A stretch of 51,616 nt of DNA, taken from contig JAMDHS010000120.1 of NCBI GenBank assembly GCA_029717555.1, positions 1 to 51,616 on the forward strand, in the 5' to 3' direction. How positions within the stretch are numbered: position 1 is the first letter of the stretch; the number at the start of each line of letters is the position of its first letter. A program made the translations under genes and the position numbers. This document shows, one piece after another, positions 31,456-51,616 of this stretch. The notes below the pieces were generated by a model. The model ran no database searches. It was not told the origin of the DNA and worked only from the letters and a program-made list of their open reading frames with translations. Source of the stretch: Peribolospora baueri (taxonomy: Eukaryota).

Positions 31456-33010
31456 CCGCCTCCACAGTGGAAGAAGCGACTGCGCTTTGGCGTCTGCTAC
31501 TCCAGCTCACCGAGCCGCCGTTGCCCAGACTGAACGTGAATATGAGCTGCCGTCTTCAACGTGTTGCTAGCGATGTGACCAAGGCGCCTATGCCACGCCT
31601 GAGATCGCTAAGGCCTGCCGTCACCGGGGATCGTTCGTTCGCGTCCCCGACGTTGGGGAGTTGCGTCTCCGCGTCGTCGTCGGAGCTAAAGTCGCTTGCA
31701 TCCGAGTCGCCGTCACCCTCCGCCACCACCGGCTCTGCCGTTTCCTGGGCGTTGAGTGCCTGTGCGGGTGGCCTTTTGTTGAGAGGCGCGAGGTTAAGAA
31801 CGTAGAGCCCATTCCGAACGCGTCCTTTGGTGACCTCTTCCCTTTTTTGCTCTTGATCCTGGCCTCCTCATCACGCGCCTCAACGATGAAGCCGCGCTTG
31901 GTCAGCTGAGGGACCGAGAGAAGGTTCGCGACCAGTCCTGGTGCATAGAGGACGTCCCTGATCGATTCAGAGCTGCCGTCAGGGAAGACGAGGCGAACGA
32001 CGCCAGAGCCTGGGGCGTTCAGAGTCGCGTTGTTGCCCATGGTGACGCGGTGAGGAGTGCTGAAGGCATTATACTCCCCAAACTACTTCTTGTCGTTGGT
32101 CATGTGCTTACTAGCACCGCTGTCGAGCACCCAGTCATTCTTCTGAGCGTCGGCGTTGAAGTGAGCTTGCGCGGCAACGGCGGAGAAGGTCCAAGCGAAG
32201 GCGGCCCAGTCGTTCTTTTCGCCTTCCTTTTTCTTCTTCTCTTCCTCCATCCTCAGCGTTCGGCATTCGACCTTCTTGTGCCCAACCTTCCCGCAGTGAT
32301 GGCACTTGCCCTTGAACTTGTATTTCTTGAGTCGCGGCCATAGCAGTCTCAGCAGACGACGTCGGAGCATTTTAGGCAACTGTCTGCATCATCTCCTTCT
32401 CGATCTGCTTGACCTCGTGCATCAACTCGTCGGATGGTAGAGTCTCCGTGTGAAAGCGCCAGACTGCTTTGTGAACTTCAAAGGAGGAGGGCAGTCGCTC
32501 GAGGAGCATATAGGTGAAGTCCTCGTCAGCCAACGTCTCTCCTGCCTCGCGGAAGTTGTCTCGCAGGTCCATCATGCGCGCGAAGAAGGCGTTCATAGAC
32601 TCTTTTGGCTCCGGGTGCGTCTTTTTGAGCTCCGAACGCAAATTGAACCTAGTCGCCTTAGACTCGCCCGCGTGAATGTGCTCCAGGTCTGCCCACAGTT
32701 GCTTAGCCGACCTTCTCTCATTGATCTGGCTCAACTGGGTCCTTTCGAGCGTATCGATGATCGCCAGCCTGGCAATAGCGAGAACCCGCCGAAGGGTTTC
32801 GTGCGCCTGGTCCAGTTCGATCCAGTTGGAGTGATAGCTTACTGCCTCCTCCATATCGATGTCGGGCCCATTGGGGTCGATGAAGAACCAGAGCCCCGTC
32901 GACTCTAGGATGTTCGTCATCCTCCTTCTCCATCCGATGTAGTTCGGAGAGCTCAACTTCTGAGCTCCCTGCCAAGAGACAGCAGCGTTGTCCTTGACGC
33001 CCTTGACCAT
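31396..33010 (-). pseudogene. Copia gag-pol remnant (gag, zinc knuckle, protease, GAG-pre-integrase region, RNase H fragment)
   Basis: gag KLSSPNYIGWRRRMTNILESTGLW..LLERLPSSF; TAA at 32372-32374; frameshift near 32330; CHHCGKVGHKKVEC; WVLDSGASKHMT; TAG at 32083-32085; DVLYAPGLVANLLSV; SWSSRRQSAVASSTVEAEYI. Confidence 0.9.
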
Positions 33011-33132
33011 GTTCGCAATCTTGGCCTGCCTTCGGGACGGCTCACTGACCCTAGCTTGGGTGCGTCTGGCTCAGGATCGCCTCTTTCCGACTGAGGCGTC
33101 CCGGCCCTTCTGCCACCTCTACGAAGTCGATG

Positions 33133-42073: not shown

Positions 42074-42258
42074 CATATGTGCACATTTTAGATGTCTCAA
42101 GTTTTTCTTTCCCATTGCGAGCTCGCGCCGGATGTCCCCAGAAATCGACTTGAGAGCATTCCCAACATACGTGCCCATTTTATATGTCTCAAGTTCTTTC
42201 TCTCCCATTACGAGCACGCGCCGGATGACCCCAGAAATCGAGGGCATTCCCAACATAT
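42074..42258. repeat. Imperfect tandem duplication, 2 x ~90 bp, directly upstream of the 42362 secreted gene
   Basis: cata(t/c)gtgc(a/c)catttta(g/t)atgtctcaagtt...cccatt(g/a)cgagc(t/a)cgcgccggatg(t/a)ccccagaaatcga...gcattcccaacata occurs twice in tandem. Confidence 0.92.
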
Positions 42259-42361
42259 AATAGGAGAATCCACGGTCTGCTGCCCGCATAGCTCTTGAGC
42301 CGCTAACACAGCCTCCTTTTCGGCCACCTGACTGTACTCGTTCTCTTCACAGCATCAAATC

Positions 42362-43468
42362 ATGAAGATCGCCATCTTCTTGCCCTTCCTGGCCACTATC
42401 GGCGCCTCGGCCACGTCCACCTCGATCGACTGGCCTGAGCGGCGCGACGACCGGCGCATGTACAAGCTTGAGGCTCGACAACTCGTCACGGCACAGAACA
42501 ACCAAGTCCTATCGGGCCGTGCCCCTCTCGGCTCAATGGACATTCTGGGCGCGGCCCTCAAGCAAGCCGCGGCGGCAGAGAAAGAAGCGAAGAAGAACGG
42601 AAAGAAGAACGAGGGTCCCAAAGATGAGAAGGGACAGGCTGGCACTCAAGGTGGCGAGGCGAAGGACGTGGGTGATGGCGTTTCGGGAACTAAAGGCCTT
42701 AGCGCTCATACCGGCAACGGAGGCTCTGGCACAGGTGGCCAGGATGGTAATAGCGGGCCGGAGAACACCAACGGAAAGCCCAAGAAGAGTGACGTCAGTG
42801 CGTCGAACAAAGGTGGAGCAGTGCATAAGGCACACGGATACAAGGAGGGACCCAAGGGACATAAGTTTGGCAAGGGTGGCCATCATCGCCACCACGGTAT
42901 CTCCCGCCGCAAGTTCCGCCGTTCTTTCTTTGGCCGCCCTTTCTTGGGTCACGCCCACCGCCATGGCCATCACTACAAGGGGGGAAGAGACGGTGACAGG
43001 GATGATCTTGGGAGTGATATTGATGACGCAGAGAGCCAGCTTCAAGAGACACAGGACACTCTTGGCCAGTTCGGAAGCAAGAAGAACATGAAGAAGCTCT
43101 CGGCACTGATGACCAAGGCGGACGAGTTGAAAGAACAAGCTGCCAAGAAGTCAAGGGAAGATGACAAGAAAGACGACGACGACGGCGCTGCTCATCTTCA
43201 TCGTCCTCGCCATCTGTCGACTTCTCAAATGACAACGCGTTCGGAAGACATTCTCGGAGTTGCTCTGGACCAAGCCGAGGAGGCGCTGGAAAAGGCTGGC
43301 AAGTCGGTGGGCAACGGCAAAAAGGGCGAGCCCGGAGCTGCTGGCAAAGGCGGCAAGGACGGCGTGAACAGCGGCGAACGGGGCGGAAAGGGTGGGGAAG
43401 GCTGGGATGACTGGGATGACCACCACCGTCATTGGCATGGCCACCACCATGACTCTGGTTGGTTCTGA
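42362..43468 (+). CDS. Secreted Gly/Lys/His-rich protein with two internal repeats and dibasic sites; function unknown
   Basis: 368-aa intronless ORF. Signal peptide MKIAIFLPFLATIGASA. Repeats DILGAALKQAAAAEKEAKK..GQAGTQGG..DGVSG and DILGVALDQAEEALEKAGK..GAAGKGGKDGVNSG. Dibasic sites ERR, DRR and RRKFRR. His-rich patches; no Cys. Confidence 0.85.
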   Translation: MKIAIFLPFLATIGASATSTSIDWPERRDDRRMYKLEARQLVTAQNNQVLSGRAPLGSMDILGAALKQAAAAEKEAKKNGKKNEGPKDEKGQAGTQGGEAKDVGDGVSGTKGLSAHTGNGGSGTGGQDGNSGPENTNGKPKKSDVSASNKGGAVHKAHGYKEGPKGHKFGKGGHHRHHGISRRKFRRSFFGRPFLGHAHRHGHHYKGGRDGDRDDLGSDIDDAESQLQETQDTLGQFGSKKNMKKLSALMTKADELKEQAAKKSREDDKKDDDDGAAHLHRPRHLSTSQMTTRSEDILGVALDQAEEALEKAGKSVGNGKKGEPGAAGKGGKDGVNSGERGGKGGEGWDDWDDHHRHWHGHHHDSGWF

Positions 43469-43720
43469 ACCAGGGACTGCGCGTAGAACGGTCAAGATGG
43501 CAATATAGCTCATGGAGAAGAAAGAGGAGGAAGGGAGAGAGGATGGAATGGGAAAATAGTCAAGGAATGATATTGCTAGTCTAGACGCAGTCCGAATGGA
43601 AATCATTTGCACAACGAGAAATACACCAAGGGTCATGGAAAAGCGTCCTACCGGCTTTAGCGCGTACCACTCGACCCTACAGACCACTGTCGTACTGCTA
43701 CTGACGCCGAATGAGAAATG

Positions 43721-45004
43721 CTACGCTTTCCTCGGGCCGCTACCGACGATGCCCTTCCCGGTCTTAAAGTGTGTCTCCTCCCGTATACCGCTGCCGCTAC
43801 TGCTCCTGTGACCGCCGCTCTTCTCGCTCTTCTTCTCTCCAAACGCGCCCAGGACGTAGCCCGCGCCAAAGAGGCCCGCAAGGAAGTAGAGACCGGCGCG
43901 CTCCTCGTCCGTCAGTGGCCGGTTCGCGCTCGCGACAGAACCGCCAGAAGAGGAATTCTGGTAACTGGGTCCGGAGCCGGCGCCAGAACCGGAAGATGCG
44001 GGCGAAAGACCGGCGGCGTCCAAAGCGGCACTCCTGATCTGCTGCCATGCTCCGACTGAAGCAGTCTTGCCCTTCTCCGCCACCTCGCGCCCTTGCTCAG
44101 CCGCCTTCTGAGTAGAAACACCTCCGATTCCGAAATTAGAGAGCAAATCAGAAAGGAAGTCGCCTTGTGAATGATGCGGGTCCTGGGCAAGATCCGGGTT
44201 CTCGAACACGTGCGGATCCGAAGTCCTCGAGATGTTGTGTGACGGTCCCCCGCCGGGGTGAGTGAGAGGGGAAGCGACCGTGACGACCTTGGGTCCCTCA
44301 CCGGAAGGCTGAGGGGCAGCTGGAGAATGGAAGGCATAGTTGTCCGGAACGACCGGCTGATTGCGACGTAAAGACGGAACAGAAAAACCGTACGACCGCG
44401 ACGAGAGCAAAACATGTGAGCAAAGCCGACAAATCCGCCTTTATGCAATACACATATGTGTGCGACGAGGACTCACGATCGGCGCTCCTTCCTCCGTCTC
44501 AGGAGGGAAGTCAGGGATCTCGGCGAGATACGTAGGGGGAACTTGACGCAGTTTGTGAGGAGGGATGCCAGGCGGACCACCCGCCGAGGGCTGCTTGAGC
44601 TGGGGACTGCCGACGTTGGGAGCGACGGTGGACGCAACATCACGGTCAGTCTGTTTGGTCACGCCAGCACTGGTGATCTTGTCTTGCGACTTGACGAGGT
44701 CCTCGACTTGCGCATCGTTCTTCGTCGAAGTGGAAAAGTTGTTGGTAGCAGAGGCGGGACGAGGGGAATCTGCGGCCACTTTCCTCTTGTCGTCCTCAAG
44801 GAGGCGGCCGATGAGGTCCTTCCTTTTTCCGGCAGTCGACAGGCCGCGTAGCCTCGCCTCCGCCTTGAGATCGTTGAGCTTGGACGCCTCGTACTTGGCC
44901 GCGTCGCGCGAGAGGAGGACGGTGGAAACGAGCGTCCTCTGCGAGAGCGGAAGGCTGGGGACGGACCGTGGTGGCAGAGCGCGAGCGAGGCCAGTTCGGA
45001 GCAT
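43721..45004 (-). CDS. SAP-domain protein with mitochondrial presequence and C-terminal TM helix (Aim34-like), spliced
   Basis: MLRTGLARALPPRSV..RTLVSTVLL; SAP motif KLNDLKAEARLRGLSTAGKRKDLIGRLLEDD; PIVPVVPDNY; RPLTDEERAGLYFLAGLFGAGYVLG. Confidence 0.8.
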
Positions 45005-45831
45005 GACGAAGGTGGTGGGTGAGGAAAGGACGATCGGCGAGAAGAAAGGTCGGTGAACATCGGCCGGGTCCTCGCACGAGGACCCGATTGGTGCCGTGGG
45101 AGTTTCATCCGCCATAGAATGCGCCTGACTGGGCGACGACTTCGAGCACACCATTCGTCTTGGATGACTTTCATGTTCATCCACCGCGGCCAAGATCACT
45201 GCATTCTGTGCCCTTATTCGACGCATGCGCTGCTTACGCGTCCGTCCGGCCCTCCATTGGCCGTTGATCCTTTTGACAGATACAGCGCCCAGCGAAAAAG
45301 GTGCGACCACGTCTCGCTCCGGTGTGATCCGCGACCTCGGGCGAGAGAGGGATCGGCAAGAGACCTTCTAAAGCTCGCCTCGACGCCTGTCATTACTCAA
45401 AGCTTGCCGCCATGCCAGCTCAACTGACGCGGCCTTTGGACTACTTCCTCAGGCCTCACCTTTCCATTCGTAGCGTCCAAAACTGACTCGCGCATCTGAA
45501 TGTCTTGCATACCGCGGCGTCGCTCTCGACACTGCAGTGGCCGGGGATGACCACCGTCGCTCTTTCTTTTCCAGGTAGCAGCGACCGTCAGCTCACGTGC
45601 AGAAGCTCCCACCGACCCCGCGTACTTGAGCTCGGTCGCTCGGTCAGCCTTACGAAGCGCCGTGCGGCATCTGAGATGCACCAATGCCTTCCGTCGATGG
45701 GGGAGAGTAAGCGAGCGCCAGCGGCTTGACTGTGGAGCAAAAAGGTGTGCTCGTGCTTTGCTCGCTCACTCAGCTGAATCGGTCTCTGAAACATCGACAT
45801 ACCGTCTTAACGTATGCCAACAGAGCAAAGC

Positions 45832-45837
45832 TATAAA
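45832..45837 (+). promoter_or_regulatory. Candidate TATA box of the Trp/Gly peptide precursor gene; possible 5'UTR intron 45868-45918
   Basis: TATAAA about 105 nt upstream of the ATG at 45940; GTAACT...CCCTGCAG lies between them. Confidence 0.4.
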
Positions 45838-45939
45838 GACGCTCCGCTGCAGACTTGACTTCGCTCGGTAACTCTCAGCTCGAGCTGGTGCGTCCTCTGT
45901 CTCCTCCTGTCCCTGCAGTTGAAATCCCCGTTCGCAATC

Positions 45940-48094
45940 ATGAAGGTTTCCATCACGGTCGCTACCGTCTGTCTGGCTCTCTCCGTGGCCAAGGCGGCGC
46001 CCGTCAATTACGACGAGTCTTCGCCAGAAGCGCTTGATAAGAGGCAGTGGTGGGGCGGCCCTTGGGGCTTTGGCTGGTGGGTACTTCGCTTCTATCTTCA
46101 CCGCCAATCCTGACGTCTCATTCCATTTCATCTTTGCTCTTTTAGGGGAGACTGGTGGAAGGATCACCAGCAGCACCAGCAGCGTGACATCTCCTTTGAG
46201 CGCGACGTCCCGCTTCCGCCTGGCCTCGACAAGAGGCAGTGGGGCTGGGGTGGTTGGGGAGGTTGGGGGGGCTGGGGGGGCTGGAGAGACTGGTTGGTCG
46301 AGATCTCGATCATGAAAGTTTTTGTTCGAAGCTGAAGCTGATGTCAACCTGTGCTCATCTGCGCCTATCTTTCAGGGACTGGTGGAAGGAGCACCAGAAG
46401 GAACTTGAGCAGCGTGACATCTCCGATGACGAAGATGATTTGCAGAAGCGCCTCTGGTGGGGTGGTTGGGGTCCGTGAGTAGCTCTCGCCGTCCTGTTCC
46501 TGCTCCACTTGTCATTAACCTGACTTCAATACATTTATTTTTTTCGTCCAGTGGTTGGGGCTGGGGTGACTGGTGGAAAGAGCACCAGCGTCGTGAAGAT
46601 TTCACGGAGAACGACATTTTGAACGCGCGTGGCTACTCGGATGAAGAGCTCGACCGCCTCTTTGGCGAGCGTGCTGATGAGGGTGAGGATCTTGACAAGA
46701 GGCAGTGGGGCGGGGGCGGCTGGGGCGGCGGGGGCTGGGGGGGCCAGGGCGGCTGGGGCGGCGGGGGCTGGGGGGGCCAGGGCGGCTGGGGCGGCCGGGG
46801 CGGCTGGGGCGGCGGGGGCTGGGGGGGCCGGGGCGGCTGGGGCGGCGGGGGCGGCGGGGGCTGGGGGGGCCGGGGCGGTGGATGGGGTGGTGGTCGGTGA
46901 GTATTTCAAAACGTCCACTATCTCTCCTTTGGTGCATGTTGTCGGGTTGACCGACTGAAATCTATCACTCTGTCTGGCAGCGGTGGTGGGGGGGGAGGTT
47001 GGTCGAAGAAGCGTGACATTTTGAGCGCGCGCGGCCTTTCGGATGAGGAAATTGATAACTTTGCCAAGCGCAGCGATGGCGGCGAGGTGGACCTTGACAA
47101 GCGCCTCTGGTGGTGGGGGTCGCCGTGGGGCTGGTGAGTGGCCTGTCATTCTGTGCTGTGAAGCTTCATTGTCGACGATAATTGAAGCGTGTGGCTATGT
47201 CATTCATCTCCCGCTGCACCAGGAACTGGTGGCAGGATCACAAGCAGCAGAGGGACGAGATCTTTAGGAGGGATGGGACCTTGGACGACGAGAAGTGGTA
47301 AGTCAGCTGTCCACCTAGCTGCACCTCACCCACCGCTCCTCAACTGACTTCTGCCGCCAACATTGCAGGGACGACTTTTGGAAGAAGGACGGTCAGGAGC
47401 TGGTGAAGAATGGCCTACTCGAACCCGATGAGGAGGTTGCCAAACGCCAGTTTGGGTTCGGCAGCGGTGAGTACATGTAGAACTCTGAACCGAAATGTGA
47501 TGTATTACGAACAATCTATTAACTGAGACCATTGATAATTTGCGGGGACAGGCAACGCGCTCGCCTTCCAGGTCAGCCGACGATGAGATCCGTCTATAGT
47601 CTTCGAGCAAAGAACAGCAACTGATGCGAACATATTTGTTTTGCTGCTTTCCAGAGCGCCAACGGAGGCTGGGGAGGCCCTGGTGGCTGGGGGTTCAACT
47701 TCGGGGGATGGAAGCGCCAGGTGCCCGCGATGGTCATCCCACACGAAGAAGAGCGGGGGATGAACGAGGACCGTGGCTCTGATGATGATCCCTGGGAGGA
47801 AAGGGAGAAGAGACAGTTCGGGTTTGGTGGTATCGCCATCGGTGGTAATGGTGGACCCGGAGGCTGGGGAGGACCTGGGTGAGTAGGATTGGGGTAGAGA
47901 AGATGTGATGCGTCGGACGACGTGGACACTGATGTTCGTTCTCGCGACATATTCTGCATCGTACCATCAGAGGGCTCAACATCAACGCTGGCGGGCTGTA
48001 AGTCGCCCTGTACGCCGCTCGGTATCGACCTGAGCTGCCAGCTGAAGCCTGTGACGCTTGTTTTGCTTTTTCCAGAAATGGCTGGTGGTGGTAA
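45940..48094 (+). CDS. Secreted Kex2-processed repeat protein (KEP): precursor of Trp/Gly-rich peptides, 11 exons
   Basis: Exons 45940-46076, 46146-46292, 46376-46474, 46552-46896, 46981-47133, 47223-47297, 47369-47466, 47552-47571, 47655-47878, 47971-47997 and 48076-48094 all have GT-AG borders and splice into one open frame. The protein is a signal peptide followed by repeated acidic spacer-KR-core modules. Confidence 0.88.
46706..46896 (+). repeat. G-rich coding minisatellite (ggctgggg... units, 15/18 bp) encoding GGW/GGGGW/GGxGGW repeats
   Basis: Read directly; about 11 tggggg-containing units. Confidence 0.9.
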
Positions 48095-48276
48095 AAACGA
48101 GAACGATGGCGATTTCCTGTACCGTACAGACGTAACGCTCCACCGAACGTGGTCCAAAAGAGAATACGCCTCGTTTCTGTCGAAGGGAAGCTGACTAAGT
48201 ATGTCCCGTTGCTGCGGCTCGATCACCTTCGCCGATGACGGCGCATTCATCCATCCATCCACCGCATAGGTTTTGT

Positions 48277-49735
48277 TCAGATCGTCGAACGCATACGTCC
48301 GTTTGCGGAGAGCCTTCTCACTTTACCTTTGTCTTTGTCGACGCTTTCTGTTTGACCGACGTCAGGTGTAGGATCCAAGTCGACGCTTTCCGTCTGACCG
48401 ACGTCAGGTGTAGGATCCAAGTCGACGCTTTCCGTCTGACCGACGTCAGGTGTAGGATCCAAGTCGACGCTTTCCGTCTGACCGACGTCAGGCGTAGGAT
48501 CCAAGTCCGGCTCGCTCAACGCCGTCGTCGCACCGCCTTGGTTGAGATTCGTGCTGCCGTACCCTCCTCGTCCGCCGGAGCCTCCGTTCCCTCCGACTGC
48601 CGCCGCGGCGGCGGATCCCTGTCCCTGTCGCCCAGGTGCACTGCTCGTACCGCCCAAGTTGAGGGTACCGCCAGAACCCGAAGCGGTGTTATGGCCTAGT
48701 CCACCACCTCCGCCCGCGCCCCCGCTGTGCCAGGATGACACGGCGACGAAAAGGTCAGCCGACTGCTGTGGCCGTCGAGAGAAGGCCTCTGAACCCGGTA
48801 AAAAGGAGACGAGGGGGTATCAGGTCTCACCCTGCTGCTTGGTAGCCGTGCGCATTCCCGGAATCGTTTCCGCGATCGATCCCGTTGCCCTATTCGATCG
48901 TCGCGCCCAAAACAAAACGTTGAAGGTCACTTCAGCTGGGATCCGGATTCCCCAAAGCGAACAGCATACACCCAGCTTTAACGCCTTTTCCGAAAGCGAC
49001 GCAAAAGGGGCTCACATCGTTTATTGCCTGCTGGTTTCCGCTCCCTCCCAGGTCTCCTTGGTGAACCCGGTGCCGATGCCCGCCGCCACTGCCTTGGCGG
49101 CCTCGGCTCTTCCCGGACGAGTCGTGGAAGCCGAGCACGCCGAGCACGCCTTCGCTGGACAGGTCTCGCTTCGGGAGGTGCTTAAGCGGGTGGCTGAGTA
49201 CGTCGTCCAGCGAATGCGGCAAGACGGGAATGGACGGTAAAACAGGTTTGGGTCGCCGGTGAGTGTGGTGAGACCCGGGACGGGCAGCATGTCCACGATG
49301 GGATGCGAGGGCTTCGTGGTTTGAAACGGGCTGACGAATGCTAGGATAGTTTTCCGCTTTGGAGACAGGCGCCTTGGTATTATCCCCCGCTTGCGGCTTG
49401 CCGGCTTTGGCAACGCTCTCGGCGTTGTGGACGTTGGTACTGCTCACGCCAGGAGCGCCCGCCCTACCTGGCTGTCCGTCCAGACCAGACGGGAGCAGAG
49501 TGAGGTCTTGCCCGTTTTCGTACGACGTCAACTTGGTCCAAGCATCGTCGAGGGAGCTTTGAGCGTCTGCGATGTCGTCGGTGTAGGCCCGAGCTCGTAC
49601 GCTGTCGAATGAAGGTCTTGGCACGTTCTCGCGACGTTCGAGCGGATGGAGAGGGCAGGAAGCGCAAGCGAAAGCGGTGTGAAGGGCGAGAAGAGTGGAG
49701 ACTGAGAGCAGAGGAATCAACGCAAGCATCTTCAT
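48277..49735 (-). CDS. Secreted Gly-rich protein with dibasic sites and a 4 x 14-aa acidic repeat; 3 exons proposed, 3' end uncertain
   Basis: Signal peptide MKMLALIPLLSVSTLLALHTAFA; dibasic sites LERR, HRR and LPKR. Exons 49735-49016, about 48889-48831 (GNGIDRGNDSGNAHGYQAAG) and about 48725-48277 with GT-AG borders. Confidence 0.75.
48337..48504. repeat. 42-bp minisatellite x4, encoding DLDPTPDVGQTESV on the minus strand
   Basis: gtcgacgctttccgtctgaccgacgtcaggtgtaggatccaa at 48337, 48379, 48421 and 48463; no spacers. Confidence 0.97.
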
Positions 49736-50323
49736 ATCTGGAAGTGTGTGGGGAGGGGAAGCAAGACGTCAAGACTGGCCGGAGTCCGCGAGGCGTGGAA
49801 TCAGGCTTCGAAGCGGATCGACGCGACTGGACTGACGCGATCGGCAGATGTGCTTTTCGTTTGCGATCCTCCTCCTACGCCCTCCTTCACCCCCCTACCC
49901 CGCGCCCTCCTCTTTCCGCATTCTCAGCCCACTTCGCAGCAAAACATAAAGTCCATTTTATTCATAAGAGGCACTCGAAAAGTGCCCATCCAAATGTCCA
50001 TCGATAACCGGGGGGAAAAAGGGAAGAGAAGACGTTATGACATGGTCCATAAAAGAACCAGAACAGAGTAAGGATGTGCAGGAGAGACGATGGGCAAGAG
50101 GAACGTGGAGGTGAGCCTGGTCCACCTGCGTCCGCGTCCATCCATCCGGTCCAGTCCTCCCAAGGGTGGTGAACAGAACGAACGAGGGACGGGGAACAAA
50201 GGGCGTAGTAGTGGTGGTGGTGGTAATGGGCAAGAGAAGGGACGCAAGTACAATAGGATGGACGGACAAGTGGATGAACAAGAAGGAGTGATGCTGAGTC
50301 AGGCAGGTCTGCTGTCGCCGCCT

Positions 50324-51616
50324 TCACCAGCCGCCTTGCGCAACAGCGCCGCCGGCAGGAGAGAGGATAGGGACGTTAGCGCCGAGGCCAATCAGGTCAC
50401 CGCTGGCGCCGGCAGAGTTGGAGCCGCCGATGGCGGCGGCATTGCCGTTGTTGTGGTCGTCCTCGTGGTACCAGCGCTTGTACCCACGGAAAGGGAAACC
50501 GGCACCGTAGTTGCCGGGGGCGCCGTAAGCGCTAGCGCCACCGGCGGGCGAGGCGACAGGGACGTTGGCGGCAATGCCGATCAGGTCGTTGTTGGCCTGG
50601 GCAGAGTTGCAGCCACCCTTAGCGGCCGCGTTGCCATTGTCGTGGTTGTCGCGCTTCCGGCCACCCTGACCGACGGCGCCACCGGCGGGCGAGGCGATAG
50701 GGGCGTTGGCGGCAATGCCGATCAGGTCGTTGTTGGCCTGGGCAGAGTTGCAACCACCCACAGCGGCCGCGTTGCCGTCGTGGTGGCCGTCGTGGTGGTC
50801 GTCGTCCCAGCGCTTCCAGCCACCGTGAGCGACAGCGTTACCGGCGGGGGAGAGGATAGGGACGTTAGCGGCGAGGCCGATCAGGTCGCCGTTGGCGCTG
50901 GCAGAGTTGGAACCGCCAATAGCGGCGGCGTTGCCGTTGTCGTAGCCGTGGTCGTGGTCCCAGCGCTTCTTGAGGATGCCGCCGCCGTTGGCGTCAGCGC
51001 CGCCGGCAGGCGAGAGGATAGGAACGTTGAGTCCGAGGCCGACCAGGTCCCCATTGGCGCCCGCAGAGTTGGAGCCGCCGACAGCGCCGGCGTTACCGAC
51101 GCCGAGACCACCCCAGCGCTTCCAGCCTCCCTGAGCGCTAGCGCCACCCGCGGGCGAGGCGACAGGGACGTTGGCGGCAACACCGATCAAGTCGTTGTTC
51201 GCCTCGGCAGAGTTGGAGCCGCCAATCGCAGCGGCGTTGCCGTTGTTGTGGCCCTGGTAGTAGTCGTGATCATGGTGGTACCAGCGCTTCTTGAGGCCGC
51301 CGCCGTTGGCGACAGCGCTGCCGGCGGGGGAGAGGACGGGGACGTTGGCGGCAACGCCGATCAAGTCGCCGTTGGCCTGGGCAGAGTTGGAACCGCCAAT
51401 AGCGGCAGCGTTGCCGTTGTTGTGGCCCTGGTCGTAGTCGTGATCGTAGTGGTACCAGCGCTTCTTGAGGCCGCCGCCGTTGGCGACAGCGCTGCCGGCG
51501 GGGGAGAGGACGGGGACGTTGGCGGCAACGCCGATCAAGTCGCCGTTGGCCTGGGCAGAGTTGGAACCGCCAATAGCGGCAGCGTTGCCGTTGTTGTGGC
51601 CCTGGTCGTAGTCGTG
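50324..51616 (-). CDS. Kex2-processed repeat protein with at least 8 KR-separated ~50-58 aa units (repellent Rep1-like architecture); 5' end beyond the window
   Basis: Frame open from 51616 to the stop at 50324. Unit consensus KR-W(Y/D)H..DH..NGNAAAIGGSNSAxANxDLIGxAANVPxLSPAGxAxAxGG(W/GLK)KR. The outermost units are near-identical at DNA level with a 174-bp period. Confidence 0.92.
   Translation of the reverse strand, partial: HDYDQGHNNGNAAAIGGSNSAQANGDLIGVAANVPVLSPAGSAVANGGGLKKRWYHYDHDYDQGHNNGNAAAIGGSNSAQANGDLIGVAANVPVLSPAGSAVANGGGLKKRWYHHDHDYYQGHNNGNAAAIGGSNSAEANNDLIGVAANVPVASPAGGASAQGGWKRWGGLGVGNAGAVGGSNSAGANGDLVGLGLNVPILSPAGGADANGGGILKKRWDHDHGYDNGNAAAIGGSNSASANGDLIGLAANVPILSPAGNAVAHGGWKRWDDDHHDGHHDGNAAAVGGCNSAQANNDLIGIAANAPIASPAGGAVGQGGRKRDNHDNGNAAAKGGCNSAQANNDLIGIAANVPVASPAGGASAYGAPGNYGAGFPFRGYKRWYHEDDHNNGNAAAIGGSNSAGASGDLIGLGANVPILSPAGGAVAQGGW

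Follow-up and report, generated by a model that had tools for sequence, protein, structure and literature searches.

Two candidate Kex2-processed precursor genes beside two further secreted-protein genes in a contig of Peribolospora baueri

The stretch analysed here, hereafter the window, covers positions 1 to 51,616 of contig JAMDHS010000120.1 of Peribolospora baueri (assembly GCA_029717555.1), i.e. 51,616 nt of intron-rich fungal DNA. Towards its right-hand end lie four genes for low-complexity proteins, which we call A, B, C and D, and which a sequence-only reading had taken for one co-regulated system of secreted precursors cut at dibasic sites by the protease Kex2. Gene A (42362..43468, + strand) is a single open exon of 368 aa. 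Gene B (45940..48094, +) has 11 exons and 447 aa, and gene C (48277..49735, -) has three exons (49735-49016, 48889-48831 and 48724-48277) and 408 aa. Gene D (50324..51616, -) is an open reading frame of which 430 aa are visible. All splice models are predictions from the sequence with GT-AG introns: the frame of B requires ten of them, of 69-92 nt, and that of C two, of 126 and 106 nt. The basic description given by the sequence-only reading was accurate. The four frames start where it placed them and are broken up by nothing but one SAP-domain gene (PF02037, E 5e-7; 43721..45004, -), which we treated as an unrelated neighbour and which lies between A and B without a signal peptide of the secreted type examined; D does extend past the window edge, its 5' end lying off-window; the proteins are nearly free of cysteine (none in A, one in B, two in C and two in the visible part of D); and A, B and C have hydrophobic, signal-like N-termini, as judged by hydropathy only (best 10-residue Kyte-Doolittle mean 2.35-2.52).

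The four genes differ in their predicted processing. All four proteins do carry Lys-Arg (KR) or Arg-Arg (RR) sites, as had been claimed, yet only B and D are enriched in them when counts are compared with 5000 residue shuffles of each protein. B has ten KR where 1.48 are expected and D has seven where 0.23 are expected, and no shuffle reaches either count. A has no KR (2.25 expected), four RR (3.42 expected; p 0.45 for KR and RR together) and eight Lys-Lys, whereas C has one KR (0.74 expected) and three RR (p 0.13 together), i.e. both are at chance level. We then applied the definitions published for repeat proteins processed by Kex2 (KEPs), which ask for a signal peptide, no later transmembrane segment and a minimum of three similar fragments, each of 8-100 aa, delimited by KR/RR (PMC6339444, PMC7329392). 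As modelled here, B passes them, and D would pass except for a signal peptide that is unseen. Cut in silico at KR, all eight fragments of D fall in one similarity group, and six core and three spacer fragments of B, cut at any dibasic pair, form similarity groups. Cut at KR/RR, A leaves two long fragments (149 and 181 aa), and it gives three similar fragments only when Lys-Lys is accepted as a site, so that it appears as a borderline repeat protein and not a clear KEP. C, which gives no similar fragments among five, falls outside the definitions. The proposal of linear Kex2-type peptides is thus well supported for B and D only, and for these two we regard the predicted processing as highly probable.

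Gene B (exons 45940-46076, 46146-46292, 46376-46474, 46552-46896, 46981-47133, 47223-47297, 47369-47466, 47552-47571, 47655-47878, 47971-47997 and 48076-48094, all +) encodes cores rich in Gly and Trp (26% Gly, 11% Trp) in alternation with spacers of acidic character, and a Trp-Trp-Lys/Gln motif recurs four times. Its hydropathy peak (2.52) starts at residue 5, and no 19-residue hydrophobic stretch occurs beyond the N-terminus. Introns 1-6 are all in phase 2, and four of these six interrupt a Trp codon directly ahead of a repeated Trp-Trp or Phe-Trp motif, pointing to growth of B by exon duplication. Most cores are neutral or acidic, the number of Trp reaching 12; only a 73-aa Gly/Trp/Arg run (46700-46896 and 46981-47005, +) reaches a net charge of +4. 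This run brings to mind prion-protein octarepeats, RGG boxes and Argonaute-hook motifs. Six of the ten fragments begin with Gln, and KR followed by Gln occurs six times against 0.16 expected. Leu occupies position P4 at five of the ten KR sites, which fits the preference of Kex2 given in PMC8528282 and supports the cutting of B by this protease. When B was scanned exon by exon against Pfam, two exons had no family match at E 0.001. Two minor features of B are that the phase-2 introns would let exons 2-6 be skipped in frame (46076-47369), which could alter the peptide mix, and that the protein carries 54 WG or GW pairs.

Gene D shows eight visible units of 48-57 aa (about 52 aa) split by its seven KR. 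Each unit has a variable head of Trp, His, Asp and Tyr, and then a 34-aa, nearly uncharged core of Gly, Ala and Asn with one or two charged residues. Six of the seven fragments begin with Trp, and the units are acidic and consist of Gly, Ala, Asn and Ser at 56-65%; seven of the eight heads carry 1-4 His, the His head being absent in one unit. The core is conserved, with 21 of 34 columns invariant over the eight units. By codon position, variation is seen at 10, 11 and 25 of the 34, third positions varying most. The proportions of synonymous (pS) and nonsynonymous (pN) differences are 0.34 and 0.125, dN/dS is 0.30, and pN is below pS in 27 of 28 unit pairs. The peptide core of D is under purifying selection, since pN<pS in its frame while pN>pS in the antisense one; a 515-aa open frame antisense to D was accordingly rejected as a shadow. 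Among the four genes, the large protein database search for homologues covered D only, and confirmed none among 7999 candidates of 236-753 aa. A profile of the D unit had no match among 1.84 billion representatives, pattern matches in metagenome and prokaryote contigs were confirmed in 0 of 35, 0 of 594 and 0 of 101 cases, Pfam had no family for any of the eight units at E up to 10, PDB sequences gave two weak matches only (E 0.08 and 0.12), and the Atlas gave no usable match for A or D. AlphaFold2 models of three D units (predicted local distance difference test, pLDDT, 39.6) and of exon 3 of C (pLDDT 55.3; predicted template modelling score 0.14) were too weak to use.

Three details of individual D units may be recorded. 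The two first-read cores (51284-51616, -) are identical in DNA (pS 0, pN 0); a unit may have been duplicated very recently, or the repeat may stem from the assembly. Two adjacent units (50534-50776, -) have one Cys each, placed identically within the core, so that a disulfide-linked dimer might form. The seventh visible unit (50480-50527, -) has an extra aromatic Gly/Pro tail with GAPG between aromatic residues; it loosely resembles the 11-residue Cryptococcus quorum peptide Qsp1 (10.1101/191668), probably by chance.

Gene C lies tail to tail with B, their stop codons about 180 nt apart (48094-48277). Towards its end an acidic repeat of 42 nt (14 aa) occurs in four copies (48337..48507, -; period 42, 4.1 copies, 97% matches) with no dibasic sites between them. 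Arg followed by Gln, considered as a possible cut site in C, occurs three times (0.97 expected, p 0.07). The last 102 residues of B align with C over two collinear 23-residue blocks, without any KR between them in C. Block 1 (aa 351-373 of B, 47463..47699, +, across introns 7 and 8; aa 250-272 of C, 48688..48862, -, across intron 2) has 14 of 23 residues identical, six of them non-Gly, with p 1e-5 when glycines are held fixed, for a block chosen post hoc. Block 2 (aa 419-441 of B, 47835..47995, +, across intron 9; aa 302-324 of C, 48532..48600, -) has 15 of 23 identical, four of them non-Gly (p 3e-4 with glycines fixed). The gapped score of the B tail with C, 119 against 68+/-10, is reached by none of 1000 glycine-fixed shuffles, global or local, and none of 1000 does so either for B with only the 73-aa glycine run taken out. 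As controls, the same test with the B tail was reached by 877 of 1000 shuffles for A and by 341 of 1000 for D. In a six-frame search of the window with block 2 of B, block 2 of C was the top match (84, the next scoring 60). Three of the four block copies cross introns, and hence the match also supports those splice junctions. The motif link involving B is therefore real and larger than had been claimed, but its partner had been wrongly assigned: the GNALAFQ motif of B had been paired with D, and its true partner is in C. By its sequence, C is a partial paralogue of the tail of B, apparently a diverged copy of its last two units. As for transcripts, the 3' untranslated regions of B and C probably overlap, and a minus-strand AATAAA at 49962 likely ends the transcript of D, which leaves about 225 nt for a promoter of C (49736-49962).

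In gene A an acidic helix, with stretches rich in Gly/Lys and in His after it, is present twice in clear form (three times by a loose count). The score of the internal repeat of A is reached by 3 of 1000 shuffles. Pfam, including its chaplin, curlin and other repeat families, gave no match for A or for the exons of C at E 0.001. Directly upstream of A lies an imperfect tandem duplication of about 93 nt (42074..42260, +; 88% column identity), which ends at a TATAAT word that precedes the ATG by 106 nt.

Do these four genes form one system? All seven motif pairs quoted in favour of this are present in the translations, but six of them are no better than shuffles (composition-adjusted scores reached by 38-400 of 400 global shuffles) and only the B-C pair is real. 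The links A-C, A-D, B-D and C-D were rejected on these controls. In whole-protein alignments some pairs beat global shuffles and none beats local ones (21-243 of 300). A profile of the D unit has no match in the other three proteins (117-431 of 500 shuffles reach the scores), and a profile of the module shared by B and C gives no alignment with D (probability 0.45, with 28 of 100 column shuffles doing as well); D thus shows no relation to the other three at the sequence level. A profile of the three helices of A does find the acidic spacer of B, at a score that 12 of 3000 global and 38 of 3000 local shuffles reach, but the link fails in reverse (1592 of 3000) and with the two clear helices alone (117 of 3000). 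The regions upstream of A, B and C have no common 8-, 9- or 10-mer (0.73 8-mers expected) and six common 7-mers against 8.9 expected, and shared promoter words were rejected for lack of any common 8- to 10-mer. Hence the four-gene, motif-sharing and co-regulated system finds no support here: neither A nor C is a clear precursor, D has no visible relation to the others and the upstream regions share no 8-mer. Nothing tested ties all four genes into one system. The surface-active, amyloid-forming, metal-binding and antimicrobial functions listed in the sequence-only reading are candidate roles.

We therefore tentatively favour, at a little under an even chance, a small island of secreted-protein genes with two independent KEPs, B and D, and two neighbours. 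The genes would be adjacent through local duplication and the accumulation of fast-evolving secreted genes. After entry into the endoplasmic reticulum, B and D would be cut by Kex2 after KR, and Kex1 would then trim the basic residues. The Gln-initial fragments of B would become capped by pyroglutamate, and pyroglutamate KEP peptides have been detected in Coprinopsis (PMC9769878). The products of both genes would stay linear. B would release a mixture of aromatic, Gly-rich peptides and acidic spacers, probably binding surfaces or matrix, while D would release many near-identical peptides of 48-57 aa, charged in the head and uncharged in the core, most likely assembling on the cell wall as a coat and working like the Ustilago Rep1 repellents without being homologous to them. 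C would have arisen by local duplication from, or together with, the tail of B, and would display the module of B inside a larger, little-cut protein. A would be a separate, highly charged secreted protein losing at most a pro-peptide and receiving one internal cut.

Among known systems, we first compared the genes with KEPs in general (PMC6339444, PMC7329392, PMC9769878). The predicted signal peptide of B, the presence in B and D of at least three similar units between KR, the Gln-initial peptides of B and the lack of a modifying enzyme nearby on the visible side all recall them, and about one third of the catalogued KEPs have no homologue either (2560 of 7878, with 5.3 KEPs per basidiomycete strain; PMC7329392). 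Basidiomycete yeasts also tend to longer KEP units (PMC6339444). What differs is that the unit sequences of B and D are new, that B is a mixed array with ten introns of which the first six are in phase 2, and that a neighbour, C, carries the module of B without its KR sites. Neighbouring KEPs are not new: in one part of Table S2 of PMC7329392, unrelated KEPs have near-consecutive accessions in Meira (PWN31600/31602 and PWN37123/37125) and Laccaria (EDR05986/05987), and pairs of the same type occur in Lentinula and Leucosporidium, accession order being read as gene order by us. B and D are thus two new sequence types of an already catalogued gene type. Neither their units nor the pairing of a KEP with an uncut paralogue turned up in the literature within reach, subscription papers and picture-only supplements lying outside it; and five short motifs of B and D are absent from the supplements of PMC6339444, where motif logos may be pictures.

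For a coat-like role of D, which by analogy we hold to be an even proposition, the model is Rep1 of Ustilago maydis, whose repellents are Kex2 products of 34-53 aa forming amyloid on hyphae (PMC3133707, PMC4617103). In both, imperfect units of about 35-55 aa are repeated in tandem, with Kex2 sites between them and no conserved Cys, and the host of D is, like U. maydis, a basidiomycete in all probability. The match in unit size and the lack of conserved Cys support the coat reading, the likeness being one of size and layout. Yet the amphipathicity of the D core is not significant, and no database search with D returned Rep1. In the same species, Hum3 and Rsp1 also have repeat units split by putative Kex2 motifs (PMC4617103), and Rsp1 is hydrophilic, as is A. 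But A lacks their regular unit-site-unit layout, and A to D, as far as visible (the unseen part of D being N-terminal), have 0-2 Cys and no eight-cysteine hydrophobin domain.

Several observations weigh against the island of two processed precursors as outlined above. For two KEP genes to lie as close as this, no more than two genes apart, random placement gives a chance of about 0.5-3%, by a rough sum, so that there is room for a functional cluster. Asp occurs at P3 in four of the ten KR sites of B, and is unfavourable for yeast Kex2 (PMC8528282). The signal peptide of D is not visible, its 5' end being off-window. The beta- and alpha-amphipathic moments of the D core are reached by 17-83 and 49-81 of 200 shuffles, respectively, and each unit has two prolines; amyloid or coat formation by D hence rests on analogy. 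When the glycine run of B is kept, the B-C score is reached by 14 of 1000 global and 76 of 1000 local shuffles. Lastly, no phenotype was seen for six kep knockouts of Coprinopsis (PMC9769878).

One might prefer to see all four genes as one co-regulated locus releasing a cocktail of peptides with a joint function. Four of five consecutive genes encode low-complexity proteins of secreted type, the homology of B and C is real, the three-helix profile of A does reach the spacer of B, A does split into three similar fragments when Lys-Lys counts, and two KEPs so close are unlikely by chance. But A and C show no dibasic enrichment, D is unrelated to the others by profile search, the A-B link depends on the direction of the search and on the third, loose helix, the upstream regions share no words of 8 to 10 letters, a housekeeping-type SAP gene sits inside the stretch, and unrelated KEPs with near-consecutive accession numbers occur in the other basidiomycetes mentioned above. 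We consider the joint locus unlikely.

The products might instead be soluble signals or defence molecules, the capped, Trp-rich peptides of B acting on membranes or receptors and the His/Asp heads of D binding metal ions. The varied cores of B with their many Trp and predicted capped N-termini, and the His in most heads of D, are compatible with this. Typical antimicrobial peptides, however, are cationic, whereas the cores of B are mostly neutral or acidic and all units of D are acidic; being also aromatic and Gly-rich, the cores of B seem better suited to binding surfaces or matrix than to a cationic attack on membranes. Moreover, the conserved part of D is its uncharged core and the His head its variable part, absent from one unit. 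KEPs include pheromones and toxins (PMC7329392), but the units here are longer than the pheromone class of 9-24 aa (PMC6339444), and the Coprinopsis KEP peptides are described as without antibacterial activity (PMC9769878). Signalling or defence is accordingly no more probable, in our view, than the joint locus.

The B-C match, taken alone, could go back to an old duplication, or glycine-rich sequence could have converged, in which case all four genes might be unrelated passengers. The synonymous sites of block 2 are saturated (pS 0.82), intron positions differ between B and C, the blocks were picked after inspection, which makes their p values optimistic, and local shuffles of the whole proteins do as well in 39 of 300 cases. 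Against this, the two blocks are in the same order, each is significant with glycines fixed, and no shuffle reached the score once the glycine run of B was removed. The block-2 consensus also had no exact match in prokaryotic genome or viral collections, in a search run with a positive control. Convergence is for us quite improbable.

A further reading can be drawn from bacterial two-component functional amyloids, i.e. curli (CsgA/CsgB) and the long and short chaplins. As in these systems, one module would occur as a short secreted form, the peptides of B, and inside a larger protein, C; the difference is that no unit has a Pfam match and no anchor was identified in C. B and C might thus be a subunit-and-nucleator pair, in which the two-block module of C, held in a little-cut wall protein, would seed the capped peptides of B, with D as a second coating peptide. 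By analogy, and as a long shot, several genes would then make up a fungal coat locus of the functional-amyloid or polyglycine type, for which the literature searched gave no earlier description.

The sequence-only reading had seen no DUF3328 or tyrosinase gene in the window, and none was found in the 376 of 846 stop-to-stop frames scanned, namely the longer ones of at least 40 aa (105 of 258, 150 of 271 and 121 of 317 by region), with short exons and the right flank outside the scan. Motif patterns for DUF3328 and tyrosinase had no match in the window frames either. That B and D are precursors of dikaritin-type peptides that are made by the ribosome and modified after translation (RiPPs), with DUF3328 or tyrosinase genes beyond base 51616, is therefore very improbable: 22% of KEPs do have a DUF3328 gene nearby, three genes away on average (PMC7329392), and the right-hand flank lies outside the window, but the scanned frames of the 51.6 kb on the left hold no such match and the units are long and of low complexity, not short identical cores.

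KEPs are widespread and mostly of unknown function, and two further sequence types are a modest addition to them. D nevertheless offers an unusually clean test case, with eight conserved units that are under purifying selection and can be synthesised, for whether repellent-like coats evolved outside the smuts. B and C present one module in a cut and in a largely uncut setting, so that co-assembly is testable with synthetic peptides and, if true, would mean that fungal surface polymers can be organised in a new way.

Elsewhere the window holds housekeeping genes: PGAP1, WD40, CBM21, OPA3, DUF455, PL14, UQ_con, SRR1, SYF2 and Upf3. The PGAP1 domain is 45-55% identical to the best 120 of 813 matches, of which Mixia osmundae is the best named one, and a search with Upf3 gave four partial matches. 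The host is thus probably a basidiomycete without a close database relative, and missing homologues are to be expected for fast-evolving secreted genes. We rejected orphan status as evidence of novelty, since even conserved PGAP1 and Upf3 find only distant or partial matches. A scan of the window with Rfam gave no matches. Between 15900 and 19100 lies a long intergenic stretch with simple-sequence repeats, strong swings of GC skew and no Pfam match. Finally, a copia remnant is present at 31624-33070 (-), about 9 kb from gene A, where copia-type gag and pol fragments in different frames mark a broken retrotransposon.

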